Source of the DNA: Amoebophrya sp. A120
Lineage: Eukaryota; Protista; Dinoflagellata
Assembly: GCA_905178155.1 (NCBI GenBank)
Contig: CAJINV010000005.1
Coordinates: 7,184,989-7,248,988, forward strand
Direction of reading: 5' to 3'
Length of the DNA: 64,000 bases
This document shows, piece after piece, positions 1 to 51,173 of this stretch. The notes under the pieces are model-generated. The model made no database searches. It had not been told where the DNA came from and was given only the letters and a program-made list of their open reading frames with translations. Positions within the stretch are counted from its first letter, which is position 1. Each line of letters begins with the position of its first letter. The position numbers and the translations under genes are program-made.

Positions 1-2143
1 GTATCGGATTCGAGCTGATTTAGTGGACCACCAGTTGCTGAGCTGTTGCGAAGATCATCATGTTGGACGAGTCGTGGATAGGAGTAGGACTACGACGGAG
101 GAACATCAAAGCAAGGAACAACAGCTCGCCCTTGCCGCTGCAACCTCCTCTTCCTCGTGTGAAAATGGCATGACAAGTAACGATACTAATCCTAGTGCAG
201 CTAATCGCACAACTAATTCTTCCTCTACTACCTTCCATCTCCTCGACCGTCACCCAAACAACTTCTTAACGCAAATGCGTTTCCCGAACGGGGACGAAAA
301 TTTCGTAAATCCCAAGTTCGAGTTATCGAAAAGAAAATTTCCCCCTCCCCATATCACAACGAAATATCTGATGCTGGATTTGTGTACACAAGTTGCTGGA
401 GAGCACTGTGGGCGCATATCAAGTGCGAGTAGCAGGGTTTTGGCTTTATACATAGGCACTTCTTAGCATGAAAAACGTCAGCATGACAAATAACCGCCTG
501 CACAATGCGGCGGCTGTCTGCGGAGTTGCCTTCTTGCAAGACAGACACGATTTGCGACCACAAATCAGCATAACAAATTTCCAAAAGTATACCTTTTGTT
601 CAGTATGGGGAGGGGGGATTTTTCCTTTGAATGCGAGTATTTTACCAAAGAGCTCCACGAGGAGGACAAGGCGCACCTGGTCATGCACAAAATATGGATT
701 GTAAAGATGTCTGGGTCTGGAAGATTGCAACTTGTCATGCTAAAACTGAATCATGCAGAAATCTGTGTTGCATGAGTGCCAAAAGGTGTCCACTTTCGAC
801 CAGGTTTGGAGGGAGTTTCTCATGCAGAATAGGCATGGCAGGGACCTCACAGACTCTGTCATGCTAGGTCCCGCATTCCAGACCTCACAAGTCATGGAAA
901 ACCTGCATGACAAGTTTAGACTCTTCCAGACCCAGACATTTTTGCATTTGATACAAAATGGACAACCGCGATTGGCACGGGATTAAGTCACCGCGTTGGC
1001 AAACGATTGCTATATGGAATTCGCTGTGGACGCTGGCGTTCCGGGAGGCGCAGTGCTTATGCATCGCAAAATGTGCGTAAGTACTCGTACATTCTAATTG
1101 CAATCGAGCATGACAAACCTGATTTCCTATGTAACTCACCATGACTACAAATTTAAACTGTCATGCTGACGAAATCGAAATTTGTCATGCGGTCACTTCT
1201 ACAGCCAGTACACGATGCTACTTTTGCAAAAATGCATACTGCTTCGCAAGCTGCGACAACTTTATGGGGAAAAATGTTTTCTCGCCCGCGGAAGGTGGAG
1301 GCGCGGAGGAGGGTGACCAGGACGAACTTTTTTCTCCGGTGCCAGTACGCATTGCAAATATGTCCGGGTCTAGAAGGATGCAACGTGTCTTGCTGTTGCT
1401 GGATTTGGATTCTACAAAAATCTGTATTGCATGAACAGCAACAGTAACAGAGGTGGTCCAGTTTTTGCCACGGCGAGAGGGAATTTCTCGTGCGGTATAG
1501 GCATCAGGAGGCCCTCACAAAATCTGTGATGCTAGGGCATGCATCACAAACATCAGGAGTCTAGTCATGCAAAATGTGGTGCATGACAATCCTTCCAGAC
1601 CCGGACATATTTGCACTTGATAGCCAGTTTCGGAAAACGACGAGGAACAACCTAGCAGTGGACCTAGTACGTCAACCCGTCCGCTGGATGAATTTGGCCC
1701 GGTTCTTGAGCAACAATTGCAGAGCAGCAACTGCAATAGCAATACCTCGTCGCAACAAGTCCAAGAATCTGCTGCTGGCAGTCGTTCTTCATCATCCTCA
1801 CATTTGTACGATTACGCAAAAAGCAGAACGACCAGGGACAGTGTCGTTGTCTATGACAGTGCACAACTCCCCCTCCCCCTCATTTGTATAGCATGAACGG
1901 CAACACAAGCATCAGCAAGAGTGCCTGTTTTGCATGACAAATTTACGCTGGAGTGTAGTGCTATCTGGGCTACCAGAAATTGCCATGCAAGCAGTGCCAT
2001 AAGGCAGCGACGGGATTGTTCGGGATTTTGCATGACAAAACAAAGGAGGGGGAGGCAGAGTTGTGCGCTGTCATATTGTCGTAGGTCCTGGAGGACAACT
2101 TCTGCGACCGCTCCGGGCAGCCGACCTGGAAGAATTGGATTGA
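1..2143 (+). CDS. Hypothetical protein, 3' part (5' end probably outside window), 5 introners
   Basis: Removing elements 324-633, 693-953, 1058-1238, 1346-1622, 1852-2075 plus one 5-bp DR each gives ...NPKFEYFTKELHEEDKAHLVMHKMDNRDWHGIKSPRWQTIAIWNSLWTLAFREAQC...RAADLEELD*; TGA 2141-2143. Confidence 0.8.
324..633. mobile_element. Introner family C
   Basis: TIR GAAAATTTCCCCCTCCCCATA; DR cgagt. Confidence 0.85.
693..953. mobile_element. Introner family A
   Basis: TIR ATGTCTGGGTCTGGAA; DR caaaa. Confidence 0.9.
1058..1238. mobile_element. Introner family B (diverged)
   Basis: TAT..GCAAAA TIR; DR gtgct/ctgct. Confidence 0.8.
1346..1622. mobile_element. Introner family A
   Basis: TIR; DR gccag. 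Confidence 0.9.
1852..2075. mobile_element. Introner family D
   Basis: TIR TATGACAGTGCACAACTC; DR ttgtc. Confidence 0.9.
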
Positions 2144-6900: not shown

Positions 6901-7753
6901 CGGCTGCGGCCTAGGGTTTAGGGTTCGGGGTTTAGGGTCGTCGAGGCCAGCCGGCGCGACGGCGCCGTCGCGCCGGCTGGCCTCGACGCTTCTCTTTTTC
7001 TCGTGTTCCTTCCCCCTTCTCCGCCCTTGTGTGCCACCATTTTGGCTTCCATTGCTTCTTGGTCCTTTTGCTGTGCGCCCTTTGCCCCCGTCGTGTTTCC
7101 GTGCCTTGACTCCTTGCGGCATTGCCTTGCGTGCCCCGTGAGTCGCTCCATGTTCGCCACCTTAGGGCCGCCGCACCCATCTGGTGGCCGCGTGCGTAGG
7201 CTGATCTGTCGCGCAGGATGAGGACTCATGTGCGTTGTGGCAGATGCCTGGCTTCATCGCCGCGAGGTAGATGGCACAGAAGCCAAGCAGCATGCATCCA
7301 GACGTAGTCACGTTCTGCTCGACAATCACGGAGCAGTGCAACGCGGTGGGGAAGTGTTGGACGACTGGGAGGTGGGGAGGTGGGGAAGTGCCTCCCCACC
7401 TCCCCACCACTGGGGAGGTACCTCCCCACACGTGGGGAGGCACCTCCCCAGGGTGGGGAGGTGGGGAGGTGATGCGTGGGGAGGTGATTCACACCATAAC
7501 CCCAAAAACAAGCGGTGGAGAAATGCGGAAGAGGAAAAGCCTATTTAGAATCCTCACGCAGCAGAGAGAGAGGACAAGCAAAATGTTCTGGACCACGAGG
7601 GAGGGTGTGATGGAGGACGAGGAACGAATAAAACGCTTCAATACATGTATCCTGCTTGCAAGATCTAGTGCGTGCGCGCTCGTTGGCCTGCGAGTGCAAA
7701 ATTATCTAATTGGTCGCTGCCTTATTTCGTCCGTAGTAGCTGTAGCTCTTTGA
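3978..7753 (+). CDS. Gly-rich (GGGGD repeat) hypothetical protein, possibly secreted; 3-4 introners
   Basis: ATG 3978; removing 4198-4504, 4572-4731, 4859-5398 joins to ORF 5543-6886. Removing 6754-7498 plus 5 nt continues in frame to TGA 7753 (alternative stop 6886). Hydrophobic stretch MKMLFAAGALRVAMPGTLLC near the N terminus. Confidence 0.6.
4198..4504. mobile_element. Introner family F
   Basis: TIR TATGG..TGTCAGGATTGAAAT; DR gcctc/gcttc. Confidence 0.9.
4572..4731. mobile_element. Introner family B
   Basis: TIR TGCAAAAGTATCGTACTCG; DR agcca/agccg. Confidence 0.9.
4859..5398. mobile_element. Degenerate long introner
   Basis: Imperfect TIR AGATCAAATCATC; DR lost; removal restores frame. 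Confidence 0.6.
5689..5800 (+). repeat. 15-bp coding tandem repeat (GGTGGAGGAGGAGAT, GGGGD)
   Basis: Direct reading of tandem copies. Confidence 0.9.
6754..7498. mobile_element. TIR element with CACCTCCCCAC subterminal arrays
   Basis: GTGTGAATCACCTCCCCAC ... GTGGGGAGGTGATTCACAC(C)ATA; no clear DR. Confidence 0.65.
6912..6937 (+). repeat. Short interstitial telomere-like (TTTAGGG) tract
   Basis: TAGGGTTTAGGGTTCGGGGTTTAGGG. Confidence 0.55.
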
Positions 7754-7951: not shown

Positions 7952-8051
7952 NNNNNNNNNNNNNNNNNNNNNNNNNNNNNNNNNNNNNNNNNNNNNNNNN
8001 NNNNNNNNNNNNNNNNNNNNNNNNNNNNNNNNNNNNNNNNNNNNNNNNNNN
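7952..8051. other. Assembly gap (100 N)
   Basis: Run of N. Confidence 1.
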
Positions 8052-11000: not shown

Positions 11001-11227
11001 ATCAATTCGTTATATACTAGTCGCAAGCTACCCTTGACTCACTCCACACTAGAAACCAAAAGCAACACACAACAACGACCAGGCAGGCACCCCGCCGCAC
11101 CCTCACGCACTCCCCACAGCCGCACAGAAAGGCGGCGGTCCCAGTGGTGCAGGCACAGCCGGGCCTCTAATGTTCCGGCCCTCGCCTCAAGCGCCCCCGC
11201 CTTTCTGAACCTTCAGCGGAAATGCCA

Positions 11228-11545: not shown

Positions 11546-11664
11546 GCTAGGTTAGCCTCCAGAAGCCTCTAGCGGCCTGCCTAGCCACCAGCGGGCTGCC
11601 TAGCCTCCGGCGGCCTAGCCCCCAGCGGGCTGCCTTAGGCCCCAGCGGCTTAGCCCCCTGCGGC

Positions 11665-17642: not shown

Positions 17643-20132
17643 ATGTCTCGGTTCGGGCAATTTGTGATGGGTCCCGCGGGCGCCGGGAAGTCGACCTACT
17701 GCCACTTCTATCCACAGTAAATTTCCCGTACACGTACAAATGTGATTTCTGCATGACAAACTTTTCTTCCAATCCTATTCAGCACGACAAGTTGCATGCT
17801 CCAACTTTGTAAAATTTGTCATGCATTTTGTACGTGTGCAGGAAATTTGTATTGCATAACGTCATGGCGGAGCACATGGAAATCACGCACAAGAAGCGCT
17901 GCCGAATAGTAAACTTTATTCTGTGCAAAAGTATCGTACTCGTAGTAATCGCAGTCATGCATTACAAATCTCCGTCCCAAGGTAGAACAGCATGACAAAT
18001 TCCATTTGTCGAGCTGAGCTAATTTGTATTGCAATTACGACGCTAATTTGTATTGCAATTACGACTAGCACTAGTACGATACTTTTGCAGTTCATAAATT
18101 TGGACCCAGCACTGCATGAAAATGTAGAAACAACGACGATGAATAAACAGGATACTGACGGACAACTAAATCCAGATGGAACAGCGACTTGTTCCTCAAA
18201 TAAAAATCCCAGTCCCGGCGGGTACGACTACGACATCGACATTCGCGACTTAATTACCTCCGACGATATTCAGGAAGAGTTGGAATTCGGCCCCAACGGC
18301 GGGCTGGTGTACGCCATGGAATACTTCGGGGAGCACCTAAACACGTGTATCAAATGTAAAAATGTCTGTGAAGAATGCAAGTTTGTCATACTTGTCTGGC
18401 GTGACTCTTAAATCTGTCATGCACATTACCAAAGCGCCCCACTTATTTTCTGTCATGCAGAAACGTAGTTTGTCATGCAGAATAGGCAACACCTAGAAGC
18501 TCAGAAACTTGTCATGCTGAGCCAGCAATTGTCGCCTCCTCATGATACGCCACACAGCATCACAAATTTCCAGACCCAGACATATTTGCAATTCATGACG
18601 TGGTTTCGCGAGCAAATCGAGGAATACCAAACTGATTCCGAGTACTTCCTGTTCGACTGTCCCGGGCAGATCGAGCTTTACGTGCACCACCCGGTGATGC
18701 GTTCGGTGGTGGAGTTCCTGCAGAATGACCTGCAGATCCGCATGTGCGGTATTTTCTTGCTCGACGCGGCCACCGTGGTAAACGAGCACAGTTGCGCCTC
18801 GAAATTCCTGTCCGGCTCGCTAATGGCCCTGAATGCGATGCTGCACTTGCAGTTACCCCACCTCAACTTGTTGACCAAAGTGGACTTGTTGGTTACAAAC
18901 AACCTGGTCGGGGGCGGTGCTGGCGCGTCGAGATCAGCAGACGATGGAGACGACGGCAAAATGAGCAAGAAAACTACTCTGGACAAAAACTACCGACAGG
19001 AGGACGATTTCATACTGTGAGGAAAAATCCCCCCGCCCCATATCGAAAAGGCGTGCTTTTCAAAATTTGTGATGCTGATTTGTGACCACAAATCGAGTCT
19101 TGCAAGAGAGCAACGCCAGAGCGTCCGCCGCATTTCGCAGGAAGATTTGGAAGGCTGCTGCGCCACAACTGGGGCAGACGTCTGCCATGCTAAGCGCCTA
19201 CCTCAAGCCACCCCTTTCTGAGCTTTGTATCTGCCTGCGGTGCTCTACTGCAAGACAGAGCTGATTTGTGTACGCAAATACAGCATCACAGGCTTCCCTT
19301 TCGATATGAGCAGGAGGGGGATTTTTCATTTTGATACTTCACGGACCCTATTCAGCAACTGCACCACCAAGAAAAAACGGGTGACGAACAGGAGGACGAA
19401 TTTCAGAGGAAGATGCAAAACGCGGTTGCCGACCGGTTTCTGGATTTGTGCCAACCCTCAGACTTGCTCCCTGAACTGAACCAGACCATGCACCCCAGGT
19501 TTAAGCAGTTGAACGCCGCGATTGTGGAATTGCTGGAGCAGTACCAAATGGTCTCCTACAGCACCCTATCTGCGAAGTACGACGAAGAATCCTTGAACGA
19601 AATCTCCCACCGAGTCAACGACTTGTTGCAGTATTACGAAGAGCAGGAATATCAAATGCAAAAATGTCTGGGTCTGGGAGATTCTGAGACTTGTCATGCA
19701 CGTTTTGCACGAGCCATGATGTCTGTGATGCATGCCGTAGCGTCACAGATTTTTCGAGGGGTTCTTGATCTTGATGCCTATTTCGCATGACAAATGCCCT
19801 ATCCACGTAACAAAAAATACATTCCCTTTGCTACTCATGCAATACAATTTTTTTTGGAATCCAAATGCAGCATCACAAGTTGCATTCTTCCAGATCCAGA
19901 CACTTTTGCATTTGATAAGGAAGTGGACGATAAGGGCTATGACCGGGCCATGGAAAGGATAAACGAGGGAAATAACGAAGACATGGAAGAATATGGAGGT
20001 GATCATTATTTTGCTGAACAAGGGGGCAACGATTGTTCGTACGAAAATGTTGATCGAGATTTTCAGAAAACCATGGAAAACATGTCTTTGGACGACGTAG
20101 ACTTAGAAAAATTTGGGCTTCTGGGGGCGTGA
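17643..20132 (+). CDS. GPN3: GPN-loop GTPase 3
   Basis: Spliced product MSRFGQFVMGPAGAGKSTYC...IVNLDPA...DIDIRDLI..DDIQEELEFGPNGGLVYAMEY...YFLFDCPGQIELYVH...LPHLNLLTKVDLL...FKQLNAAIVELLEQYQMVSY; P-loop, GPN loop and DCPGQIE typical of GPN3; 5 introners, no GT-AG intron. Confidence 0.93.
17709..17858. mobile_element. Introner family H
   Basis: TIR AAATTTCC..CACGTACAAA; DR acttc/acgtc; in GPN3. Confidence 0.85.
17917..18096. mobile_element. Introner family B
   Basis: DR aactt/aattt; splits NLDPA of GPN3. Confidence 0.9.
18348..18597. mobile_element. Introner family A
   Basis: TIR; DR acgtg. Confidence 0.9.
19013..19336. mobile_element. Introner family C
   Basis: TIR; DR tttca/cttca. Confidence 0.88.
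19650..19917. mobile_element. Introner family A
   Basis: TIR; DR aggaa. Confidence 0.92.
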
Positions 20133-21271: not shown

Positions 21272-24200
21272 ATGACGAATTCCACAAGTGGTAGTGCACC
21301 GCCTCATCTCGCAGGTGGAGGTCCCTCCCCTGCCTACAGCCCGGGTGGACAACGAGCTCCTGCTGGTGCAACTTTTCACCAGGCCGAGGGACTGACCTCG
21401 AAGATGATGCCCACTTCTGCCACGACAGAACAACAGGACCGCAGCACCACGACTGCCAAAAGCGCCCACTTCTACCAGCAGGAACAAAGCCAATTATCAA
21501 GCCAGTTGAACGCTCTTGCTGAAAACGAAAAGCTCCGGCAGCAGTTGCAAGAAGCGACGGAAGTTCGGGACCGGTTTCAAAAACAGCTCCAGCAATCCTG
21601 CGCTTTAGTGGCCCAGAAACAGGACGAGGTGGATGAGGTGACCAAAAAGTTGAAACAGCTGAAACAAGACCACCAGGCAGAGCTGTACCAGCAACAGCAA
21701 CAGCATTTAAATCAACTACACCACCAGCGAAGTACTAGTAGAACTACTTTGGACGGTAGTATAAGTGCTGCGGCTGCGGCTGCTCCGTCGGGAGTTGCAG
21801 CAGAAGTAGCTGGCACTTTGAGTTGTACTTCTGCCCCTCATGATGCACCACCGTTGATCCTGTCGGAAACTGCCTCGCAACAGCAGCAGCACGATTCGCT
21901 ACTGATGACGGCCCTCGGAATGTATGGATTGCAAAAATGTCTGTCTCTGGAAAATTGCAACTGGTCATGCTATGCTAAATCCGAATCATGCAAAAATCTG
22001 TGTTGCATGAGTGCCAAAAGCTGTCCACTTTCGACCAAGATAGGAAGGAGTTTCTCATGCAGGATAGGCATGACAGAGACCTCACAGTAGACTCTGTCGT
22101 GCTAGGTCCCGCATTCCAGACCTCAAGGGTCATGGAAAACCTGCATGACAAGTTTATACTCTTCCAGACATCCAGGGATATTTGCAATGCATAGAGTGGA
22201 CGCTTTGGCAAATTCGGTCAACTCGGCTACTTCAAGCCATTTAGCGGAAATGTGCGCGGAGAAAACTTTATGCATTGGAAATTATCGTACAGGTGTTAGT
22301 TACAGTTGTACTAGTATTTAAAAAAATCGCATGACAAATATTTTGCTCAGCATGAGAACTGGCATTTGTAATGCGGATTCGCCTTTAGTTTTGACACTCG
22401 TAGTGCATTAAACGGGATTAGGATCATTACTGCTAGTGCAGCCACTAGTACGGTACTTTTGCAGAGGATAGGCGTCTGAAGCTGTGGTTTTACGGGAAGA
22501 GCTGCAGAAGATGCGGGAGAAGGTACTACAGCTACAACTCACTTTATCGCAAGAAAAAAGTGTTACAGTTACACATTGGCTTGCAGGCATAGCAATACAG
22601 ACAAGCTCTGTCATTCCGCCGGACATGCATGGGAGCTTTGTTTCATACGTGTCTTCGCGTGGGATTTCTGCAATGCAAGCTTTCTCTCTCATGCCGAGAA
22701 ACTTGTTGCGTTGCTGAATTCACTACAAATGTGTAACTGTAACACTTTTTTCATGTGGTGCACTTAGGAGTAGTTTTGGCGCAGCACCACCTGCTCCTCC
22801 TGCATTTCATTGACTCGTCATCATCAGGATTGAAGAACTGGGGTAAGAAGTGCAGTACTTTTCTGGTAGTGCGAAGAACGCATCATCACCTTCTCTAGAC
22901 GTAGACCCTTTAATAAAAAAACAGGAGAAAGCCCTCCGGAGTGAACTCGAAGCCTACTACGACAGGAAATTTCAAGACTACAGCGAGCAGAAGCGCAAGC
23001 AGTGCACGGCAGTGATTGAACAGGCAAAACAGAATATCACAAGAAAAAATTGCTTCACCGGTCGTGTAGTAAACTTCTGATGTGAAGACGGATGTAAGAA
23101 CAAGACAGATGTGTTTGTTTTGCTGCACATGCAAGAAATGGAATGATATCTACTAGGCGTGTAGTTTTCCCGTAGTTCTCTCGCATGGAAAATTGTCTTT
23201 GTCGTGTTGAGCAAACTTGTGATGCGCAACTTGTGATGCGAACTTGATGTGATGCAAACTTGTGATGCAAAATCCTTACACTGAAGCACTTACTTTTTCG
23301 TACGATACAGAAGATGCAAACAGAGGCGACGAAGCTGAAACTGAACCTCGCCGAGGCCAAGATGAACGAAAAGAAAAAAATCGAAGTATCCTGAGTAGAA
23401 AACACGTCCCCACGGCGACGGCCGCAGAGTCAAGATAACATGGGCACTTTGCATCACAAAACGAACAAATCTTGTTGTGTGTTTCGCATGTTGACAAGTT
23501 CATCTTTGGGCTCGCAGCGTAGTGAAAATCGTGTTTTAGCTAGTGTAGCAGTAGCTGTGTGATGAGAATCAGCTGCTGCTTATCCCGGTTCTAGCATGAC
23601 CTCACCCATCATGATCTTTAAACGCCACCAGTACAAAACGCTTCTCGATCGACTGCGCTTTGCATTTTCCATGCAGCTTTTTTGCATGACAAGCAGCGGT
23701 ACCAGGTCGTTCGCGTGGGCCGCGACGGACGTTTTTCCACAGGAGACGAAGAAAAGCTGCAGCCGTTGGAAATCACAATCCAAACGCTGGAGAAAACGAT
23801 CACGATATGAATTGCAAAAGTATCGTACTCGTACAAATGCATGACAAATTCCATCAGCATGAGAAATGAAATTTGTAATGCGGATTTACCTTTAGAAAAA
23901 AATTTGTAATGCGTGATTGCAATTACTACAACGAGTGCGTGTGCGACACTTTTGCACAGGATGCACGACGCTGAAGTGCGATCTGGTCGACAAGGAGAAG
24001 AAGTTGCTGTGCAAGGAATCAGAGCTGATGTTGAAGAACGAACAATTTCAACAGCTGGAGGACTCCTTCCGTTTACAACTCAAGGACAACGAGGAAGCGC
24101 AGTACAGTGCAATGGAAGCAGATTTCAAGACACAGTTTGAGCAGTGGAAAGCGGAAGAAAGTGCGAAGCTTATGATCGTGAGGAAAAATCCCCCCTCCCC

Positions 24201-31032: not shown

Positions 31033-33474
31033 ATGGCAACCGTTGCAGTGGGCCAACCTCGCAAACCCTCCTCGCGCGGCTCCTCTCGCGGCAGCGCTCG
31101 TCCCTCGATCCATTTCAACCGTCCGCCAACGGATGAATTGGTAATCGTTGGCGCTGGGGTTCGCGAATTGAACGGTCTCTATTCCTATCTAATGTAAAAA
31201 TGTCTGGGTCTGGAAGAATGCATGTTTGTCATGCCTGTCTGGCATGACTCTTAAATCTGTCATGCACGTTGCCCAAGAGCTTCATTTTTCTGCGATGCAG
31301 GAACGCAGTTTGTCATGCAGAATAAGCAACACCTAGAAGCTCAGAAACTTGTCATGCTGAGCCAGCATTTGCGGCCTCATCATGAGACGCCACCCAGCAT
31401 CACAACTTTCCAGACCCAGACACTTTTACATTTGATAACTCCCGCCAGGAGGCGATTTCCATCCCCTTCCCGAGGTATGACCCGAAGACTATCCAAGAAA
31501 AAAACGTTGTTAGTGTAAATTTGTGATGCGCAACATGCAAGATGATTGCGTCTGTCATGCTTGGCATGCATCGTAGGGCCCATTCCACGGCGTTTTCCCG
31601 TACTATCTGCGCATGACAGGTGGTTGCTTTCATGCGAGAGATATTTGTCATGCTAATCCTCCAAGAAAGTTACACCTACAATGTTTTTTTCTTGGATAAA
31701 GACGAAACAGAGACTACCAGCGATCATCAACGTGCCCAACGGTTTCCGCAAAATTTGCAAGCGGGAAAACTTTGGCACCCCGGAAGACTTCTGGATAGCG
31801 GTGAACCAACATGCGGACTACTACCAGCACGAGAGTATCATAAGGTGAAAACGCCCGTCCTTTATTCATACCCTGCAAGACAAATGAATCCAGAACAACT
31901 TCAACTTTTAGGATTGACGCATGACAAGTTCGACTCTGAGAGCAGCGCCGTCGCGTAGCCTAGACAGACCAACCGCATATTCACTGCATCAAACCGCCTC
32001 TCTTTCATATCTCAACTCTAAATGTATGCAGCGCATGATCACAAAATGCCTTCCAAAATAATGATGCGAAGCCGCATGAGAGATGATGTTCATCTTCCGG
32101 ACAACATGCAAAAAATAGGAATGCGCATGACAAGAACTCTGGGAACAAGGTGCGAGACGTTTTTACACAGCATAAAGAAATCGGACGCATACATTTACTT
32201 CGATTGCGAGCGCGAAACCTGGTTTCTAGACGACGCAAAGGGGACCAGCGTGTACGAATTCGATATGAAGAAGAATTTCGAGTCCATCGCCCAGGGCGCC
32301 CTCGAGATGGGTTTCCATATCAAATGCAAAAGTATCGTACTAGTAGTAATCGCAATCACGCATCACAAATCTGCCTCCTAACCTAAATCCGCATTACAAA
32401 TTCCATTTCTCATGCTGAGGGAATTTGTCATGCGATTTATACTAGTACGATACTTTTGCAGTGCATATTCCAAGTCCCGCAGCAACTCTTCGCGAAACTC
32501 GGATCCGCGGTCCCGCTAACCTCCTTAAACGCGATATCCCATGTAAAAACGTCCCCACCCGATAGTTGTCATGCGGGTTTGCAATGACAGGAACATTTGT
32601 AATGCGCACCTACATGAGAGGAATTTCCAATCGTGTTTTGGAATTTGTAATGCCGTAAACAGGATGAGGAGGAGGGTTTGTGATGCGACTGTCCTTGCTA
32701 AGCCGCACTACAGTACAAAGACAGACTTGCCATGCATGTCTCCCGAAACTCGCTCCTGGATTTGTGTTGCCGAGTTCGCAACTTGACTATGGGGTGGGGA
32801 CGTTTTTACATAGGATACGCGAAGCCCGGGTGGGAAATGACCAAAGCGAACCGCAGGATGCGGGAACTGAATATGCAATGCAAAAGCATCGTACTAAGTC
32901 TAAATTGCATCACAAGTTTGCTCAGCATGACAAATGCAATTTGTAATGCTGTTTTACCTTAGGAAGAAGATTTGTCATGCTTATTTGCAATTAGTACGGG
33001 TGCGATGCTTTTGCACTGGATCCTGAACCCGTTCCGACGGGGGGAGATGGACGTGCCCATCGTGAAAATAAGCGAAGTATGGATTGCAAATATCTCTAGG
33101 TCTGGAAAGATGCAAACTTGTCATGCAGGTGTTACATGACGCATGAGGTCTCGAATGCAGAACGTAGCATGACAGATTCTGTGAGACCTGTATCATGCCT
33201 ATTCTGCATGAGAAACCCCCTTTCAACTTGGTGGAAAGTGGCCAGCTTTTGGTAATCCTGCAACACAGATTTTTGCATGATTCAGATTTGGCATGACAAG
33301 GTGCATCCTTCCAGACCCAGACATATTTGCAGCTGATACGAAAATTACCCGATCGAGTTGCTTCCAGAGTTGGGCGACGAGGACGGAGAGGAGGATAGCA
33401 AGGACGCTGTTCTTGTTGCTGCAGGAGGAGAAAATAGCGGAGATATGAAATTCGATCGGGGGGAAGGGGTGTAA
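31033..33474 (+). CDS. Hypothetical protein, 7 introners
   Basis: Spliced: MATVAVGQ...LVIVGAGVRELNGLYSRQE...NVPNGFRKICKRENFGTPEDFWIAV...SDAYIYFDCERETWFLDDAKGTSVYEF...RGEGV*; TAA 33472-33474. Confidence 0.85.
31186..31437. mobile_element. Introner family A
   Basis: TIR; DR attcc/actcc. Confidence 0.92.
31490..31698. mobile_element. Introner, singleton
   Basis: TIR TATCCAAGAAAAAAAC; DR aagac. Confidence 0.88.
31836..32174. mobile_element. Introner family E (degenerate)
   Basis: Weak TIR and DR; frame kept with +5 nt. Confidence 0.7.
32318..32467. mobile_element. Introner family B
   Basis: TIR; DR ttcca. Confidence 0.92.
32535..32817. mobile_element. Introner family E
   Basis: TIR; DR cgcga. 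Confidence 0.92.
32872..33022. mobile_element. Introner family B
   Basis: TIR; DR ctgaa. Confidence 0.88.
33078..33338. mobile_element. Introner family A
   Basis: TIR; DR cgaag/cgaaa. Confidence 0.9.
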
Positions 33475-40256: not shown

Positions 40257-40951
40257 GACCACGCCGTTGCGGTTATCCACAAGATGGTCACCAGCTGTAT
40301 GGAAAGTGAGGAGTTAGAAACGCAAGCAGGATGCTTAGCAAAGTTGTAGATCATGTGGAGCAAGATTTCTCTTTCTGTTTCTCCTGTACTACTTAAAACA
40401 ATTTTACAGAAGTTACTACAGTAGTGCCACGTGTAGTACTGCATCTGCAGCATGGTGCGGCCGCAGTAATATCTTCTCATGCGCAGCATTATTTAGGTCG
40501 TGGAGCCTTACCTGACTCATACTCACTTTAGCAGCATAGGAAGATGTAGTTGTAGTGAATGACTGGATTTCTCATGTGCATGCATGGCCGTTACAGCATG
40601 GAAAAAAGACGAATCAATATTTCGTAAAAGTAGACCACGACGATCGTTATGTAGAAGAAGGAGTTCTAGAATCACATTTGTTTTCTCCTCCTCCATTTTC
40701 CTCACCATATCTTGTGCCCAAGAGACCCGGGCGCCCTCGCAGAGAACAGGTATAGTTAGCACTTTTTTGGTACATCGAAAAACTGTAATATCTCGTTTGT
40801 CGTGCATGAAAAACTAATTTCTCGCTCCTGTTCCTCGTCCAACATGAAAAACTGAAATAGACTATTCTTCCCATTATGCATCGTATTCTTGCGATAATTT
40901 CCGTCCTCAGAACCGCGGCTGGTCCACGAAGTGAGTCCGCAATTCGAACGG

Positions 40952-43900
40952 ATGCCGGGCCTCGAGTTTCTAGCAGAGGACAAAAATGATCACGATATCA
41001 AATGCAAAAATGTCTGGGTCTGGAAGAATGCATGTTTGTCATGCTTGTCTGGCATGACTCTTAAATCTGTGATGCACGTTGCCCAAGAGCCGCACTTTTC
41101 TGCCATGCGGAGACGCAGTTTGTCATGCAGAATAGGCAACACCTACAAGCTTAGAAATTTGTCATGCTGAGCCAGCACTTGTGGCCTCCTCATGCTACGC
41201 CACTCAGCATCACACGTTTCCAGACTCAGACACTTTTGCACTTGATACACGATGCTGGTGATCAACATCTGCAAGAGGACGAGGACATTGCGCAGCAGGA
41301 TTTAGTTGAGAGGCACCAACTAGAAGAGGTGGACGAGGATCCAGTAGACCAGATCGGTAGTATGAACTGCAAAACTATCGTACTCGTATAAATGCATGAC
41401 AAATTCCCTCAGCATGAGAGATAAGATTTGTAATGCGGATGTACCTTGAGAAAAAAATTTGTAATGCATGATTGCAATACGAGTGCGATACTTTTGACAT
41501 GCATAGGTAGACAGCACGAGCAACTCCTCGGCTCGGCACAGCTATCGAATGCAAATATGTCTTGGTCCTCTGGAAACTTGTGATGTTGAGTGGCGAATCA
41601 TGAGGATGCCAAAACTGCAGGCTGAGCATGACAAGTCTCTGCGTCTCTAGGTGTTCGCGTTGTCTAATCAGCATGACAAACTACGTTTCTGCCTGACAGA
41701 GAGGTGAGCTAGGCTTTGGGCAACGTGCATGACAGACTTAAGAGTCATGCTAGTCGAGCATGATAGACTTTTTACATTCTTCCAGACCCAGACGCATTTG
41801 CGGTTGATAACAGCTGTTGCAAGACGACGCCCGGAGCACCGCGGACGAGTGCGACACCTCGAATGATCCGCACATCATGTATCGTGAGAAGAAAGTGTTA
41901 ACAGTGACACACGACTCTGATGCAAGACCAGCAAGACAGACAACCTCTGTCATGCAGGAAATGCTTTCCAGCCCCATTTCATGCGCGTTTTCCCTATACA
42001 GTCTGTGGCTGTGCATCACAAGGTTTCTTTGCCAGGAATAAGGCAACTTTGTGATGCTGAAACTGCAACGAATGTGTAACTGTAACACTTTTTTCCTGTG
42101 ATATCATGTTCAACAACCACAGTAACAACAGCATGTATCCCACGAAAAAACTCTTTCGCTGTGAACTTGTGATGCAGAAAATGGAATACAGAACTATTTG
42201 TCTTGCTACACCTGCATAGAGCATTGGAGGTTCAAGTGTGTTCCCCCTTGGAAAGCGCGCATGACAAATTTTCACCAGTGTTATGTGTAACAAACTTGTG
42301 ATGCAGATCTTGCAAAATCATCACAGTGAAACAGTTTTTTCGTGCGATAGCATGTCCACCGAAAATATGAACTCCACCAGTTCTGGTCAAAACTCGTCGG
42401 GTATTCTGAGGAAAAATCCCCCCTCCCCATATCAAAATGGAAATTTGTGTTGCTGCTTTGTGGTCACAAATCAGATTTGTCTTGCTGGAAGTGCTTGGCG
42501 GTATTTTCCAAGCCTGTTCGGGTATGCAGAAGGCTAGCAATCAGGCATGGAAAACAGGTTTACAGTAGTCGAAAGCGCATCACAGACTGGCTGTAGAATG
42601 CGCCACCGGGCTCCTATGACCCTATAGGCAAGACAAAGGCGATTTGTGGCCACAAATCAGCATCAGAAATTTCCATTTTAATATGGGGAGGGGAGATTTT
42701 TCACTTTGATATCGGGCACACCAACGTCTCACCTCGTCCACACCACTGGCGGTCCACTATCCTGTGCAAAAGTATCGCACTCGTAGTAATTGCAGTCATG
42801 CATTACAATTTTTTTGCTAAAGGTAAATCCGCATTACAGATTTTATTTCTCATGCTGAGGAAATTTGTAATGCATTTTCATTTATTATACGAGTGCGATA
42901 CTTTTGCATTGCATATCCACCTCCTTCTACCAACGGACCGGTGAGTGGCGGTGGTGGACAAGAGCTAGGCGCACCTCCACTGGCTCCGGGTGCCCCTGGT
43001 TTGGTTCCCGGAGCTCCCGCTCCTGGCACTACGACTACGACGTCCACGGGTGGTTTTTGGAGCGCGACTTTAACTTATCGTGTGCAAAAGCATCGTACTC
43101 GTACTAATCGCAGTCATGCAAGACAAATCTCATTTTCAAGCTAAATCAGCATGACAAATTCCGTTGGTCATGCTGAGCTAATTTGTGTTGCAATACTACG
43201 AGTACGATTCTTTTGCAATGCATATAGCTACTGCGGGCACAACTGTTGGTAACTCTAGCAGTAGTTGTTCTCCAAGCCTGCCCCCAGCGTCCAACTCGAG
43301 CAGTTCGCCAAGCCTACAACAACCAGGATTATACCACCAGCAGTTAGGTCCTGCTGGAGGTGCAGCGCAGGCGCACCACATGAGAGGCGGCGGCGGAGGT
43401 CCTCCGCCACTGCCGGGCGCGGGCGCGGCGCCGGGTGGTGCTCAACATCTTCATGCCCAACAACACCAACACGCTGGCGCAGCAGGAGGAGGAACTACTG
43501 CTGGAATCCCGCATCAGCAACACCAGCTACAACAGCATCATCACCAACAGCAGTTTAACACCACCCCCGGAGCAGGTGGGCCGGGCCCAGGCACAGGAGC
43601 TCCCGGGGGCGCTCCACCACCACATCTTCATGTTGCGCAGCATCAAGGAGGACAGCCGCAGCACCCGCCACCTCCAACGACGCATCATCATCAGCATCAA
43701 CAGCAGCCCTTTATCAAATGTAACAATGTCTGGGTCTGGAAGATTGCCAGGTTTGTCATGCACATTTTGCATGACTCCTGAAAGCAACTACATTACATCT
43801 TGCCTCACTTTTTTAAGATGGGTTTTTTCGTACTTCGGACTGTGCCATAGTAGATGACTTTACCGCTTTTTTACTGTTCTTTTATCCCTCAGCGCTGGTG

Positions 43901-46900
43901 GGTCTGCCGACAAAGTTATCCCTAGTACTCAGATGGCTACAAAGCTCATCCCGCAGCCGTCCCAGGAGCTCTTGTGACTGTCTCTTGGTAGTGATCGCTT
44001 TGCCCGTGCTTATTCCACTCAGAGTTTGCTGGGTAGGTGGCTACCGTTTTAAGTTTATAAACGAATGGGACGCCCTGCCCTTAGCCTTCCAACATGACTC
44101 CTGATGTCTGTGATGCATGCCCTAGCATCACAGATTTTGTGAGGGCTTCCTGATGCCTATACCGCATGGCAAATGCTCTTTCCGTGTAGCAAGACTTGGA
44201 CTCTATTTGCTGCGCATGCAATACAGATTTTCTTAGAATCCAAAATCAGCATGACAAGTTGGATTCTTCCAGACCAGACATTTTTACAGTTGATACCCTT
44301 GCTGCAGCCGCATCATTGTGCAACGCCGGGCAACGGACCCGCCTCGTCATCCTCGGGACCAAGGAACAGCGGTGCTGGAGGTAAGTACTTTTGATGTAGG
44401 ATCTTTGTTCATGTTCTTGTTCTTGCGTGCGACTGTGGCAAAAATTATCGTCTAGCACAAACACCATGATGATTCATTGTAGTTGGCGGCAACAATTTAT
44501 AAGCACGTCGACAAAGTAAGTAGGACGTCGACGACGATACGTATGATGAAAACAACAAAATTTCTACTTCAGTGTCTTTCCCACCACCCCCACTGGGATC
44601 TTGTTCCGCGGCAACATCCGGTGCACCAGCAACGACTACAACTCCGACGGTAATGCAGCAGCCGGGAAGCGGCGGCGGCGGGGCGGGGGGTGCACAGCAC
44701 CCGCAAGGAGGACCTCTATCCACAGTAAATTTATTCTCGTACTGCAAGTACAAAACGGAAATGCAGCACATCAAACTTCGTGGCCCACCTACAGCATGCC
44801 ACGACTTGATGTCTTATGCTAAGTAGCGAACAATCGAAGGCATGTTTTGTCAACATACAGAAAGAACCGCATTTTTTGTAAGTCTGCGGGAAGATTTCGA
44901 AAATAATTACTGTGGATAAAAACCTCACCAGCACCAGCATCACGTGACCAACATGCCGCCGCGTGGGCAGCCGCTCTCGTTCCGTGACCGAGACAACGCG
45001 GCCGCGGCCACGGCCGGCGGTATTTCCCTCCGCGAGCTGCGCGACAGGGAGATGCGCGATATCAACCGCAAATATCTCTGGGTCTGGGAGATGATTGTGA
45101 CACTTGTCATGCTAGTCTGGCATGACTCTGAACTCTGTTTTGCGTGGCCGCGAAGAGCTTCTCTTGCCTGTCATGCAAAATGGAGCTTCTCATGCGGAAT
45201 ATGCAACCCAGAACAACGGAAAAACTTGTCATGCTTGGCAGCGCATTGCAGTGTGCTAAGTATTGCCTTCCTTGCATCACAAGTTTCCAGACCTAGACCT
45301 ATTTGCAATCCATACGCGACCGGGAGCTGCAAATGCGGGACCGCGAACTGCTCAGCTTTCGCGACCGGGCGGAGCTGATGCGAGACCGCGAAATGGAACT
45401 GCGGGACCGAGAACTGCGAGAACTAGAGCAGCTGCACCTGCAACGCGAACGCGACCGGGAACTGATGGCCGGCGCGACAGCCGGTGGTCAACATCACCAA
45501 CAGCATCTACCGCCCTTGCACCAACGCGGCGGGCCTGCGGATCACCAGTTTTTTCCCCGGGACAGCCGGGACCTATGCACCGCAAAAGTATCGTCCTAGT
45601 ATAAATCGCATGACAAATAAAAATAATTTCCTCAGCATGATGAGAAATGAAATTTGTAATGCGGATTCAACTTAACAACGAAATTCAAATTTGTAATGCA
45701 CGAATACGATTAGTACGACTTTTGCAATGCATAGGACCAACAGCACAGCGACTTTCTGATGCACCGGGACCAACGAGAACACCACCAGTTACCGCCCTTC
45801 AGCTATCGAAAGGAAAAATCCCCCTCCCCATATCGAAAACGAAATTTGTGATGCTGTATTTGAGGTCACAAATCGACTTGTCATGCTAGAAGGCCAAGAG
45901 GCGCAGTCGTGGCCTCGTTTACAGGCAATTTGTCATGCTGTTTCCCACTCTCAGATGCCTCCTATCATGCTGAAGATGGAAGGCTTCCCCACGCCACCCA
46001 GCACTACAGTCCGCATCTTTTCCCGTGTAGCATGACAAAGCTGATTTGTGACAACAAATCTGCATCACAGATTTCCGTTTTGATATGGGGAGGGGGGATT
46101 TTTCCTTTTGATATCAGCAGCAAGTACGAGCACTCGCACCCGTACAGTCGCGCCGGGGCACCCGGGGGCCCGCCCCTCGTGCATCCGGGGAGCAGCAGTT
46201 GCGCGGGAGGCGCCGGTGGTGGCCAGCACCCCCCGGGAGGAGGAGGACCACCACAACATGCACCCCCCCCTTCGCATCATCATCCCTACCAGTCGGGCGG
46301 TCGAGGTATCAAATGCGAAAATGTCTGGGTCTGGAAGATTCTGAGACTTGTCATGCACGTTTTGCATGAGCCGTGATGTCTGTGATGCATGCCCTAGCAT
46401 CACAGTTTTTTTGCCGGCTTCTTGATGCCTATTCCGCATGACAAATGCCCTCTCCGCGTAGCAAAAAACGCGCTCCCTTTGCTGCTCATGCAATACAGAT
46501 TTTTTTGGAATCCAAATGCAGCATAACAAGTTCTATTCTTCCAGACCCAGACACTTTTGCATTTGATACGAGGCCCTCCCGGCGAGAAACCGTATAACCT
46601 GCTCAGGTGTTACAATCTCAAACGTTGCAATAAAATGTGGAAATCTGTGATGCAAGAAGTGCATGACCTCACCTACTCCCACAGAGTTGCGCATGACAAC
46701 AAGTTTCGGAGCTCTACACCGCACTAGATGAATCTGGCGAAATTTGTATTGCAGAAAGTGGATGAATTATGCTGTCCGGGTCTGTCATGCTCGTCATGCT
46801 ACACAAAATTTGCAACGCTTGAGATTGTAACGCTTGAGCAAGTCATAAACCGCTTCCGTCGTTTCTGGAGCAGGCACGGAAGCACCACAACTGCCACGAC

Positions 46901-49900
46901 TGGTTCGAAGTGCCGCAGAAATACTTGGGCCTGCTATGAAATGCAAAAATGTCTGGGTCTGGAAGAATGGAAGGCTTGTCATGCTTGTCTGGCATGACCC
47001 ATGATGCTTGTAATCCATGACCCAGCATCACAGATTTTTGGAAAGCTTCCTGATGCCATTTCCGCATGACAAATGCCCTCCTCGCGTAGCACAAATGTGG
47101 CTCCTCTTGCTGGTCATGCAATACAGATTTTTTTAGAGTCCAGAGTTAGCATCACAAGTTGCAACTTTATTCCAGACCCAGACATTTTTACAATCCATAC
47201 CTGCTGATCGGCCGCAACGGGGACGCGATTCGGCGGTACCGCCAGTTTGCCACGGAGCGCGGCATGAACATCATCGTCGACCAACCACAGAAAATTATCA
47301 AATGCAAAAATGTCTGGGTCTGGAAGACAGTAACCTGTGATGCTAAATCTGAATCATGCTAAAATCTGTGTTGCATGAGTGCCAAAAGCTGTCCACTTTC
47401 GACCAAGTTGGGAGGGGATTTCTCATGCACGATAGGCATGACAGAGACCTGGCAGAGTTTGTCATGCTAGGTCCCGCATTCCAGACCTCATGGGTCATGG
47501 AAAATCTGCATGACAAGTTGCATCCTTCCAGACCCAGACATTTTTGCATTTGATAAAAATGGCCCTGTCCCGGTCTGCCATGCAAGTGAACGGGGGACAC
47601 CTCATACGAATTGCAAAACTATCGTACTAGTAGAAGTCGCATTACAAATTTCCTCAGCATGAGAAAAAGAATCTGTGATGCGGATGTACCCTAAGAAAAA
47701 GATCTGTCGTGCATAACTGCAATTAGTAGTACAGTAGTACGAGTACGATACTTTTGCACAGGACACCTCACGCAGGCGGACTTGGAAAGGATGGGGCCCG
47801 GAACCGTCCACATCACGGGTAACGACTATCCTGAGTAAAAACGTCCCCACACCAGAGTTGTAATGCAAATCTGCATGCTGAAAATGTTTCTCATGCGGAG
47901 ACCCATGAGAAGCAGTCTCTCGTCGTGTTGTGGGATTTGTGATGCTAGAATCAGCATGATATGCTAGATCTGTGATGCTGCAGAACAAGCTAAACAGGAT
48001 TTCACTGCGAGGCCAAACTTGTCATGCGCAGCAGCAAAAGCTGACAGATTTGTCTAGCAGATTTCCCAGCTTGACTCTGGTGTGGGGACGTAGTTTTTAC
48101 TCAGGATAACGACCTGGCCAACATCATTTCCCTCAAGGCCGACATGCAACAGAATCTGTTCAAAGCCATTTCCACCCTGGACACGCAGAAGGGAGGCGGC
48201 GGGTCTGGCGGCGGGTTTTCCTCCTTCGGCTCGTCGTTCGGCTCCAGTGGAGGACCGGGAGGCGGTGGCGGATTCCACAACGCTATGCATTGCAAATATG
48301 TCTGGGTCTGGAAGGATGCAATTGCAAACTTGTGATGCGCATTTTACAACACGTAAAAATCTCTCATGCATAGGCAGCAAAGGTTGCCCACTTTCTGTCA
48401 CAAAAATGGGGCATTCGCATTTGTCATGCAGATTCGGCATTGCAGAAGCTTCTCGAAACCTGTTATGCTAGGGCTTCCATGCTAGACCTTCTGTGTCATG
48501 CAAAAGCAGCATAACTCTTCCAGACCCACACATATTTGCACTGGATAAACGCCTCGACCACCAACCCGCTGCATTCCGGGGGTTTTGCGATCGGATCCGG
48601 TCCCAGTTTCCTGAATATTGAGAGGAAAAATCCCCCCTCCCCATATTGAAAACGCATTCGTCTGAAAATTTGTGATGCAGATTTGAGGTCACAAATCCTG
48701 TCTCTCCTGCGGGAAGGCAAAGCCAGAGAGCCCGCCGCATTATGCCGGCGGTTTGTGATGCTGTTGGGCTTACAGCGCCGACATCTGTCATGCTAGTCCC
48801 CTACGTCAAAACCTCTCGGCCCAGGCTTGGCATCTGCCTGCAGTTTTCTCCAGCAAGACAGACCCGATTTGTGTACGCAAATCCAGCGCCAGAAACTTAG
48901 TTTCGATATGGGGAGGGGGGATTTTTCCCTTTGATATTGAACGGGCCATCGTTTCGAGGCCCCCGCGGGGGAGGACGCGATCCGCACTTGCGAGACCTAT
49001 CGAACGCAAATATCGATCTGGGTCTGGAAACTTGTGATGCTGAATGGCGAAGCATGAGGGTGCCACAAGTGACGGCTCAGCATGACAAGTTTCTGAGAGG
49101 CAAGGCATTGCCTACTCAGCATGACGAGCTGCGTTTTTGCATGACAGAAAGCTGGGGCTTATTTTATTGGGTAACTTGCATTACAGACTTGAGAGTCATG
49201 CTAGCGGAGCATGAAAAACTTGCATTCTGCTTCCAGACCACCCAGACAGATTTGCAGTTGATAAGACCAGCACCGCGACCACTTTCCGTTTGGTCCGTCT
49301 AGTGGCAGTATGCACTGCAAAAGTATCGTACTCGTATAAATGCATTACAAATTTCCTCAGCGTGAGAAATAAGATTTGTAATGCGGATTTACCTCAAGAA
49401 AAAAATTTGTAAATGCATAACTGCAATACAACGAGTACGATACTTTTGCACAGGATAGGCAGCTCCTTCGGCGGTGGGCCCGATTTTGGCGACCCGAGAG
49501 CTGGGCCTCCGATTGGCTTGGTATCCACAGAAAAAATAACCCCATCCCCATCCATTTTTTGCATGACAAACACAGAACTTGATACGTGTTCTGCATTACA
49601 ATTTGGATGTGGGTGGGTGTTTTTTCCACGAGGATACTTGGACCCGAGAAACTACGCCGTTGCCCAGTCCCAGCTCTTCAGTAAAAAACGCAGTTGCATT
49701 TATTTTGAATTTTATCCAACCTATTTTTTTCGATGGAATACAACAACCGTAGTTGTGCACCATATGGTGGCAAGCTGACCCAGTCGTGCATCATGTTTTG
49801 CGGTGCTTGTAGCTGAGAACGTAAAGTATAATGCGGATTAACAGACGATCATGCATCTTATAATTTCCACCACGACCACCACGCTCTACAACTGCATAAT

Positions 49901-51173
49901 TTTGATTGCAGAGATTGATCTCATCCACATGGTACTTCCTATTGGCGCGGCTCTCTGGTAAGAACTCTATCACAGCATGTCATCTGACACACACCCCTTC
50001 TACATCAACGACCACAGGTGGACGCAGTCGCACGGCTACGGGCACGACAGACGGTATGGGAGTGTCAGGATCGAAAGTGTCAAAGTTGAAAGAATCTGTA
50101 ATGCAAAAAACCGATACCAGCTGGAGCCCAGTTTGCAAGCGGCGCATGACGAATTTTGGCAGCATGGAAATCCAATCTGTCGCGCTGTTTGAGCAGAGAC
50201 GATTGCTTTTGTCGTGCTATTTTAGCAGCTCTATGTATAATCTCACACCCCAAACAGGCTTGTAATCGGCCTCAGTTGCCTGCTCTGCAAGACAAGCGCT
50301 TTGCGTCTAGCATTTTATGCATCACAAACTAGTTCAACTTTGACGATTTCAATCCTGACACTCCCATAGACGGCGACCGGCGGGGAAATCCGGGCGGGGT
50401 CGGTGCGGGAGGAGCTCCACCGATGCGGCAGCAGAACGGTACCGGTGGTAGTCACCACAACGTCAACGTGGGAGGTGTAGCTCCTTCTCGAGGTGGCATG
50501 CTGAACAACCCCAATCCCATGGGAGCCTCCGCTCCAGGCGTGCCGAGCCGGTCGGGACCTTACGGAACCAACAGTATGGGGAAAGCCGCTGCGCTATGGA
50601 TTGCAAATATGTCTGGGTCTGGAAGAGTGGAACTTGTGATGCTACCTCTGGACTCTACATAAAATCTGTATTGCATGAACAGCAAAAGAGGTGTGTTTTG
50701 TACTACGCGGAGAGGACATTTCTAATGCGGCTTGAGCATCAGAGAGCACTCGCAAAATCTCTGATGCTAGGGCATGCATCACAGACCTCACGGGTCATGC
50801 AAAATCTGCATGACAAACTCCTGCATTCTTCCAGACCCAGACATTTTTGCAATGCATATGCGCCCGGTGTCGGTGGTGGCCCGCCGAGTCACGGAGGTGG
50901 ATCTTCCCTGTTTGCCGGTCCTAGTATGAAACTGCACAACTCCCCCTCGTCCCCCTCATTTGTCATGCAAAGTGCCTAGTTTACGCCTTGGCTCTTGGCA
51001 CTGTTTGCATGACAAGTTCTCGCAGCCCCAATAGCACTACACTCCTGTCTAAATTTGTCATGCAGGAAAACCTGTATTCTTGCTGACGCTTGTATTGCTG
51101 TTCATGCAATACAAGTGAGGGGGAGGGGGAGTTGTGCACTTTCATACCTAGCTCTTATCCCGCAGAAACATGA
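40952..51173 (+). CDS. KH-domain RNA-binding protein with G/P/Q/H-rich and RD/RE-rich low-complexity regions
   Basis: Removing 27 introners and GT-AG introns 44381-44572 and 49681-49975 gives one ORF; KH motif FEVPQKYLGLLIGRNGDAIRRY...TVHITGNDLANIISLKADM (GxxG loop); TGA 51171-51173; start uncertain. Confidence 0.85.
40996..41247. mobile_element. Introner family A
   Basis: TIR; DR cacga. Confidence 0.92.
41361..41505. mobile_element. Introner family B
   Basis: TIR; DR ggtag. Confidence 0.92.
41543..41809. mobile_element. Introner family A
   Basis: TIR; DR acagc. Confidence 0.9.
41880..42103. mobile_element. Introner family G
   Basis: TIR; DR tcatg. Confidence 0.9.
42136..42349. mobile_element. 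Introner family I
   Basis: TIR; DR gcatg. Confidence 0.9.
42402..42711. mobile_element. Introner family C
   Basis: TIR; DR tcggg. Confidence 0.92.
42758..42915. mobile_element. Introner family B
   Basis: TIR; DR tccac. Confidence 0.92.
43076..43224. mobile_element. Introner family B
   Basis: TIR; DR taact/tagct. Confidence 0.9.
43712..44295. mobile_element. Introner family A with nested insert
   Basis: DR ccctt; insert 43782-44092 flanked by catgactcctga. Confidence 0.9.
43782..44092. mobile_element. Secondary insertion inside an introner
   Basis: 12-bp duplication; end GGGACGCCCTGCCCTTAG shared with 52033-52050. Confidence 0.75.
44381..44572 (+). other. Canonical GT-AG intron
   Basis: G|GTAAGT...TACTTCAG|TG keeps frame. 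Confidence 0.75.
44717..44918. mobile_element. Introner family H
   Basis: TIR TATCCACAGTAA; DR acctc offset by 3 nt. Confidence 0.8.
45060..45314. mobile_element. Introner family A
   Basis: TIR; DR cgcga. Confidence 0.9.
45574..45733. mobile_element. Introner family B
   Basis: TIR; DR ggacc. Confidence 0.9.
45804..46113. mobile_element. Introner family C
   Basis: TIR; DR tcagc. Confidence 0.92.
46307..46568. mobile_element. Introner family A
   Basis: TIR; DR cgagg. Confidence 0.92.
46593..46847. mobile_element. Introner, singleton
   Basis: TIR TGCTCA.G.GTTACAATCTCAA.CGTTGCAA; DR aaccg. Confidence 0.9.
46935..47199. mobile_element. Introner family A
   Basis: DR cctgc; splits KH LGL|LIGRNG. 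Confidence 0.92.
47296..47555. mobile_element. Introner family A
   Basis: TIR; DR aaaat. Confidence 0.92.
47605..47765. mobile_element. Introner family B
   Basis: TIR; DR cctca. Confidence 0.88.
47827..48108. mobile_element. Introner family E
   Basis: TIR; DR acgac. Confidence 0.92.
48284..48547. mobile_element. Introner family A
   Basis: TIR; DR aacgc. Confidence 0.92.
48616..48936. mobile_element. Introner family C
   Basis: TIR; DR ctgaa/ttgaa. Confidence 0.92.
48998..49263. mobile_element. Introner family A
   Basis: TIR; DR agacc. Confidence 0.9.
49309..49457. mobile_element. Introner family B
   Basis: TIR; DR ggcag. Confidence 0.92.
49522..49636. mobile_element. Introner family H-like (shortest, 115 bp)
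   Basis: TIR; DR cttgg. Confidence 0.88.
49681..49975 (+). other. Canonical GT-AG intron
   Basis: A|GTAAAA...TCACAG|CA keeps frame to the downstream exons. Confidence 0.6.
50055..50368. mobile_element. Introner family F
   Basis: TIR; DR gacgg. Confidence 0.92.
50595..50858. mobile_element. Introner family A
   Basis: TIR; DR tgcgc. Confidence 0.92.
50925..51146. mobile_element. Introner family D
   Basis: TIR; DR cctag. Confidence 0.92.

Follow-up and report, generated by a model that had tools for sequence, protein, structure and literature searches.

How can one and the same intron-forming element be removed from its host gene whichever way round it lies? The question is raised by a 64,000-nt stretch of the genome of Amoebophrya sp. 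A120 (hereafter, the window), a marine parasite already described as carrying transposon-derived introns (PMC7789003), in which repeated elements interrupt + strand genes in both orientations. An earlier note on this DNA had named 19 such copies and concluded that their removal cannot depend on polar signals but reads a symmetric hairpin or double-stranded DNA. We found that the elements occur in both orientations and are removed precisely in both, and that the orientation of the element interior is irrelevant to removal. The cuts likely lie at one fixed offset from the element ends, taken in the direction of the gene, and this favors splicing of RNA that dispenses with the usual GT-AG signals over excision from DNA.

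By anatomy, the repeats of the window are the published introner elements of A120, described as having an inverted repeat that begins with TAT and continues with seven variable bases and then at least three A, direct repeats of 3 to 5 nt and non-canonical borders, with a hairpin and altered splicing proposed for their removal (PMC7789003; statements on this and other published systems refer to the parts of each report that were consulted). Inverted ends with flanking direct repeats were sought, a TA start being required, and a first scan gave 61 candidates. After a relaxed pass, manual checks and the use of RNA joints, the catalogue stood at 76 elements, with three candidates dropped: 54380, which was weak, and 20253 and 63116, both from the relaxed pass. 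All counts below use the 62 elements that lie in exons, distributed over six + strand frames; they exclude element 22545, which sits inside an intron. These elements are 115 to 584 nt long (median, 255), start with TAT (59/62) or TAC (3/62) and end with ATA in 55/62. Element positions 11 to 13 hold A in 53 to 55 of 62, the 5-nt direct repeat is perfect in 44/62 and matches at four or more of its five positions in 58/62, and the elements form repeated families, are absent from transcripts and have non-canonical borders, as A120 introners do. They would be DNA transposons resembling miniature inverted-repeat transposable elements (MITEs), inserting either way round and duplicating 5 nt of their target.

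Orientation was assigned after 35 nt had been trimmed off each end, so that the inverted ends could not set the strand. All 19 named copies were present as TAT/TAC…ATA-type elements with a 5-nt direct repeat, and every named cross-pair aligned as reverse complement (identity, 0.67 to 0.83; score, 140 to 254), while same-strand alignment of these pairs failed (score, −28 to 31, against a shuffled null with a mean of −60 and a maximum of −6) and pairs within a group aligned on the same strand. The copies are thus mutual reverse complements within same-strand genes, as the earlier note had stated, although its first three subfamilies are not separate and fall into one connected family, A, with 20 copies, 12 + and 8 −, and 0/94 edges inconsistent. 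To these is added the − copy at 43712..44295, in which another insertion is nested; local alignment places this copy on the same strand as 46307 and opposite to 50595. The named family A copies in + orientation lie at 693..953 (the reference orientation, with direct repeat caaaa), 1346..1622 (TAC start), 18348..18597, 21923..22193, 24561..24828, 31186..31437, 40996..41247, 47296..47555 and 50595..50858, and the other − copies, equally within + strand genes, at 19650..19917, 33078..33338, 41543..41809, 46307..46568, 46935..47199 and 48998..49263. In family D, the + copies at 1852..2075 and 26418..26639 are opposite to that at 50925..51146 (−). Family E, which the earlier note had not named, comprises 17 copies of about 150 nt, 9 + and 8 −. 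Among exonic copies the two orientations stand at 11:7 in family A and 8:8 in family E. Excising the element plus 5 nt opens the + strand frame across every named copy, which upholds the claim of frame restoration, with a weak test at 1852 and 50925, both near stops (the latter seven codons 5′ of one).

Removal was followed in three transcript-like runs (X1, X3 and X4), all from one study, which we took as spliced transcripts because GT-AG introns are missing from them too; their RNA status is thus inferred, none being recorded as RNA. The evidence comes from assembled contigs, in which rare forms are invisible, and covers positions 17600-26800 and 31150-51149 of the window. Of the 24 joints in the first region, the 15 that were listed comprise 13 at elements and 2 that correspond to GT-AG introns. 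All 13 element joints listed, together with 18348, where adjacent pieces give the same result, skip exactly the element plus 5 nt. This holds for forward copies (18348, 255 nt removed; 21923, 276 nt; 24561, 273 nt; 26418, 227 nt) and for reversed copies with direct joints (19650, 273 nt; 22269..22470, a family E copy with a decayed direct repeat, 207 nt; 23806; and 25062..25218, also family E, 162 nt) alike. In the second region, anchor offsets were taken from one 4026-nt contig of X3: two intervals skipped 480 and 1515 nt, exactly as predicted, and the other two left residuals of 192 and 337 nt, which equal two ordinary + strand GT-AG introns at 44381-44572 and 49681-50017 that are removed from the same transcript as the elements. 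These exact summed offsets cover 16 elements in both orientations, including the 589 nt removed at 43712, and the 2 GT-AG introns between 43706 and 50368.

In total, direct transcript evidence is available for 11/19 named copies, by joints or adjacent pieces (18348, 19650, 21923, 24561 and 26418), by a piece starting at the repeat (33078, where an X4 piece starts at 33339 with 0 differences) or by exact summed offsets (43712, 46307, 46935, 47296 and 48998). For 4/19 (40996, 41543, 50595 and 50925) the evidence beyond orientation and frame is indirect, with no retained piece among the longest listed and, at 50595, a transcript piece that ends at 50589, just 5′ of the repeat. One copy of the 19 (31186) is seen to be removed through a deposited protein only, and three (693, 1346 and 1852) by frame only. 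Spliced translations equal two deposited Amoebophrya sp. A120 proteins over their full length. The first, P0001 (430 aa), is the product of a GPN-loop GTPase gene with five elements (17643..20132, + strand), whose Pfam domain, ATP_bind_1, was the match found in 1/4 exons searched; the second, P0009 (253 aa), is the product of a gene with seven elements (31033..33472, + strand). The transcript between 36420 and 40910 leaves 444 nt unaccounted for, which keeps the evidence for 40996 and 41543 indirect, and the raw-read RNA run X9 gave 2 mapped reads. The start of the long gene concerned (36421-40910) is broken by large or nested elements, with 36798 lying within 36421, 38056 within 37761, and a 916-nt element at 39341.

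The exact position of the cut within the direct repeat was read from elements whose two repeat copies mismatch, where mRNA or protein shows which copy is retained. For mismatches at positions 1 to 4, the upstream copy was retained in 8/8 RNA-informative elements (p 0.008), namely, 17917..18096 (family E, +; position 3, with an X4 piece starting at 18100 and the 5′ cut at −2 or later), 19013, 21923 (5′ cut within −2..0), 22269 (−1..0), 25062 (−3..0), 25830..26069 (a family D-like element; position 4, −1..0), 26132 and 43076..43224 (family E, +; position 3, with an X3 piece starting at 43228). Thus, 22269 and 25830 limit the 5′ cut to −1 or 0. At position 5, by contrast, the downstream copy was retained, both at 33078 (RNA and protein P0009; 5′ cut at −1 or earlier) and at the unclustered element 31836..32174 (protein only; repeat mismatches and protein place the 5′ cut within −4..−1), and register 0 is therefore excluded. 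Splicing at −1/+4 gives P0009 exactly, whereas register 0 does not match it, although a deposited protein may not be independent of transcript data. Assuming one register for all elements, and reading along the host gene, TAT is likely preceded by the 5′ cut at a distance of 1 nt and ATA followed by the 3′ cut at a distance of 4 nt. A transcript piece whose last base is 36419, directly adjacent to the −1 position of element 36421, fits this register and was left out of the counts, and a homologue search for a coiled-coil gene with a position-5 mismatch at 29212 found no match.

The mirror register (−4/+1) is ruled out by family E in both orientations, by 17917 and 43076 for + copies and by 22269 and 25062 for − copies, and the cut therefore follows the host gene and not the element. 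Since the informative genes are all on the + strand, transcript direction and chromosome strand coincide here; a minus-strand open frame at 59970-60860, interrupted by an element at 60190-60496, offers a place to separate the two. The conclusion that removal cannot depend on polar signals is not supported. The cut is asymmetric, and elements with inverted ends yield the same 5′ and 3′ RNA ends either way round, so orientation-independence does not exclude a polar machine and shows only that the interior is irrelevant.

If one orientation were retained, or spliced at nearby cryptic canonical sites, the symmetry would be only apparent. Two copies do read GT-AG when cut at −1/+4, 24561 because its repeat is CCAGG and 46307 because its repeat is CGAGG, and 7/62 offer GT, GC or GA with AG at some one of six registers. 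However, 2/62 is what chance predicts (1.5 expected), which leaves cryptic canonical sites without explanatory value, and the GA-AG option at 25830 is excluded by the joint. The reversed copies argue in the same sense, since 19650, 22269, 23806 and 25062 have joints of element plus 5 nt and 43712, 46307, 46935 and 48998 fit the exact offsets. No retention of either orientation was seen in the transcript contigs, which drop rare forms, and the outcome that the earlier note had named as refuting its reading was thus not observed. We regard this explanation as having almost no chance of being correct. Neither G at intron position +1 nor AG at the 3′ end is needed for removal. There was also no purine bias after the 3′ cut (purine in 36/62), and +1 is unconstrained while +5 is C in 33/62 and G in 24/62. 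A U12-type intron was considered, as NTAT fits positions 2 to 4 of the RTATCCTT donor, but was rejected on these same +1 and +5 bases; minor-spliceosome small nuclear RNAs (snRNAs) are reported absent in A120 (PMC7789003).

Orientation-independence and symmetric ends would equally be expected if the elements were cut from double-stranded DNA before transcription, like the internal eliminated sequences of ciliates. In formal terms, −1/+4 on one strand could result from a staggered cut with two-fold symmetry, the confinement of informative genes to the + strand leaves strand and transcript direction unseparated, and contigs that drop rare variants could hide a minor excised fraction. The DNA-like run X5 nevertheless speaks against excision: 8/8 contig pieces listed run unbroken from flank into element, some span whole elements, and depth there is 26 to 32, compared with 35 to 38 in element-poor stretches, although the X5 joint table is flooded by repeats and partly uncounted. 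Run X7, whose cover is patchy, has 0 of the 15 joints listed. With element-flank continuity near single-copy depth in X5 and no listed joint in X7, the joined form is not abundant in DNA, and assignment to the ciliate class was rejected. Moreover, mismatches resolve one way in 8/8 cases, which heteroduplex segregation would not predict, and, to our knowledge, Amoebophrya has no separate somatic nucleus. We therefore consider excision from DNA very improbable.

The mechanism that we favor, at roughly even chances, is removal from pre-mRNA by a relaxed spliceosome, which would use the TAT…ATA end motifs as the points from which both cuts are measured. With inverted ends, the RNA would begin N-UAU…AAAA and finish UUUU…AUA-NNNN in both orientations, and a polar machine would see no difference between them. 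With the −1/+4 register, intron position +2 would be U and +3 would be A, an arrangement shared with GUA donors, and the first A of the terminal ATA, which is invariant and lies 7 nt upstream of the 3′ cut, would be a branch-point candidate. U at +2 and A at +3 are each found in 62/62 elements, whereas their mirror positions vary in 7 copies (p 0.016, or 0.125 without wobble-compatible changes). In strain A25, TTA begins the inverted repeat and TT-NN is the form of all nine top-ranking splice motifs (PMC7789003), and this too gives U+2/A+3. The same report finds that A120 retains nearly all spliceosomal proteins together with U2, U4, U5 and U6, with U1 snRNA not found; its A120 splice-motif table may be an aligner artefact and is not independent support.

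Several points weigh against a relaxed spliceosome. G stands at +1 in 18/62 and a terminal AG in 6/62 (5.2 expected), so that the 3′-site docking contacts of known spliceosomes are wholly absent in these introns, and we know of no spliceosome that ignores both G+1 and AG. Ordinary GT-AG introns share transcripts with the elements. A is present at −7 in 62/62, and the comparison with its mirror position (0 versus 3) is not significant; the invariance at the 5′ end is partly ascertained by the TA start demanded in the search, although the open frames in six genes argue against missed copies. No single junction fixes −1/+4, a shared register being assumed with an upper bound from two elements, and the transcript-like runs are from one study whose contigs drop rare forms. 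Lastly, pairing of the ends is predicted over the first 15 positions, with a mean of 10.5 paired and six or more in 54/61, and the arms of family E covary at positions 15 to 24 (p 0.006).

Such pairing is what would be read, as a hairpin, by a separate non-spliceosomal or heavily remodelled RNA machine that then ligates the exons, an explanation to which we give a substantial but less than even chance. Its cuts would lie at constant but unequal spacings from the stem (5′ side, 1 nt; 3′ side, 4 nt), and it would thus be polar and euglenid-like. It would account for the lack of a conserved base at +1 or at −1/−2, and predicted pairing of the ends is as good on one strand as on the other. In Euglena, knock-in experiments demonstrated spacers of 3 and 5-6 nt, fixed and unequal, around an inverted motif (PMC12501133), and circles are reported for euglenid introns (PMC11282704). 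The GT-AG introns of the same transcripts and the missing U1 (PMC7789003) also fit. Apart from the family E covariation at positions 15 to 24, however, tests for selection on an RNA stem were negative. In the first 14 pairs G-U (39) and A-C (40) are equally frequent, with no G-U excess on the sense strand, sense and antisense folding energies are equal (p 0.99), and within-family covariation at positions 4 to 8 is absent (p 0.38 and 0.997), while the high covariation across families reflects only family-specific ends. The ends of family E at positions 4 to 8 pair less than permuted partners, and pairs at positions 4 to 7 are Watson-Crick in only 23 to 41 of 62. In addition, U+2/A+3 and the Polarella-like register are easier to derive from a spliceosomal start. 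Of the two substrates proposed in the earlier note, the hairpin stays in contention, albeit in a polar version for which two tests of selection on pairing were negative, and double-stranded DNA is disfavored by X5 and X7. On the most far-reaching reading, A120 would possess a second mRNA-splicing system outside the spliceosome, evolved independently of that of euglenids, which would measure −1/+4 from inverted ends without need of any junction sequence, so that insertions in either orientation and at any site would be tolerated silently; to this, too, we give a substantial but less than even chance.

Other observations concern the elements themselves. The families share an internal motif of 9 nt, GCATnACAA, also present as its reverse complement, with 72/79 and 79/88 matches falling within elements, which span 19,492 of the 64,000 bases; it is a candidate transposase-binding or splicing-factor site. 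The insertion in element 43712 (43770-44092, 323 nt) is bordered by a 12-nt duplication, is multi-copy in run X5 (depth, 200 to 380) and has a 3′ end that reappears at 52033-52064, within element 51978; it is possibly a second mobile element landing in the internal motif of introners. Element 22545-22760 is nested in an ordinary GT-AG intron (22523-22924) and has a decayed 3′ end, GTG instead of ATA, as expected, in this single case, if the need for splicing maintains the end motif. Elsewhere in the window, a duplicated, apparently non-coding block was seen by eye at 52150-53740 and 61840-62390, and a motif of about 45 nt with TGATGA recurs at about 56560, 58180, 59250 and 61180, without Rfam match; at gathering score, Rfam gave 0 matches in the window. 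The window further contains a long element with inverted repeats (6765-7491), GC-rich tandem arrays with units of 15 and 32 nt (11189-13500), a cluster of palindromic repeats (63063-63281) and a gap of 100 N (7952-8051).

How tens of thousands of non-GT-AG introns of A120 are removed is a question left open by the paper that described them (PMC7789003). Taken by itself, indifference to orientation is what inverted ends would lead one to expect; the A120 elements are a published system, and either-orientation introners are published elsewhere. We found no statement of two-orientation removal or of a fixed register for Amoebophrya in the open-access literature, a search that left aside figures and bioRxiv supplements, and the register may be foreshadowed in part by one sentence and the figures of Farhat et al. 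2021 (PMC7789003). The main addition is thus the fixed −1/+4 register that follows the transcript. It would allow re-annotation with true borders, names a branch-point candidate and turns the choice between the spliceosome and another machine into a test of lariat versus circle. A machine that needs neither G+1 nor AG would explain the spread of transposons through exons without target or strand limits.

Within Amoebophrya, the consulted text of PMC7789003 uses "orientation" only for gene blocks and calls splice sites variable relative to the hairpin, and PMC12130899 treats A120 introners as diverse transposons, its consulted parts leaving orientation aside. Aureococcus anophagefferens and Polarella glacialis (classes 2, 3, 6, 7, 8 and 10) have introners that, whichever way they are inserted, become introns with ordinary splice sites (10.1101/2020.10.14.339549); either-orientation introners also appear in PMC10228655, and the methods of PMC9860276 allowed opposite-orientation matches. 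The elements of the window share with those of Aureococcus and Polarella the terminal inverted repeats, target-site duplications and introns in both orientations, but the GT/GC/GA-AG sites of the latter need particular targets, whereas here the duplication is unconstrained and 60/62 are not GT-AG. The closest geometry is that of Polarella class 12, with a 5-nt NNAGG duplication, −1/+4 cuts and GC/AG sites, where the 5′ site is the last base of the duplication plus the first element base and the 3′ site is duplication positions 3 and 4 (10.1101/2020.10.14.339549); that class, however, is single-orientation.

The nonconventional introns of euglenids, a lineage unrelated to Amoebophrya, likewise lack GT-AG, have an inverted terminal motif, direct repeats and a likely MITE origin, use fixed unequal spacers that are longer on the 3′ side and coexist with canonical introns (PMC12501133). 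Their exons start with a purine, and their motif is CDG/CH′G with 3- and 5-6-nt spacers, compared with TAT/ATA and 1 and 4 nt here, and the signature N3CDG…CH′GN5-6|R was rejected for our elements, which also lack the purine bias. Diplonemids pose the same choice between the spliceosome and a separate system (PMC12621601). In Fritillaria borealis, finally, MITE-derived introns have been attributed to an adapted U2 spliceosome (PMC11282704). These too are transposon-derived, with terminal inverted repeats, target-site duplications and non-GT-AG borders, but prefer the dinucleotides AG-AC and AG-AT, whereas no terminal base is conserved here; a U2 spliceosome adapted to such introns provides a precedent for removal of the A120 elements by a relaxed spliceosome.

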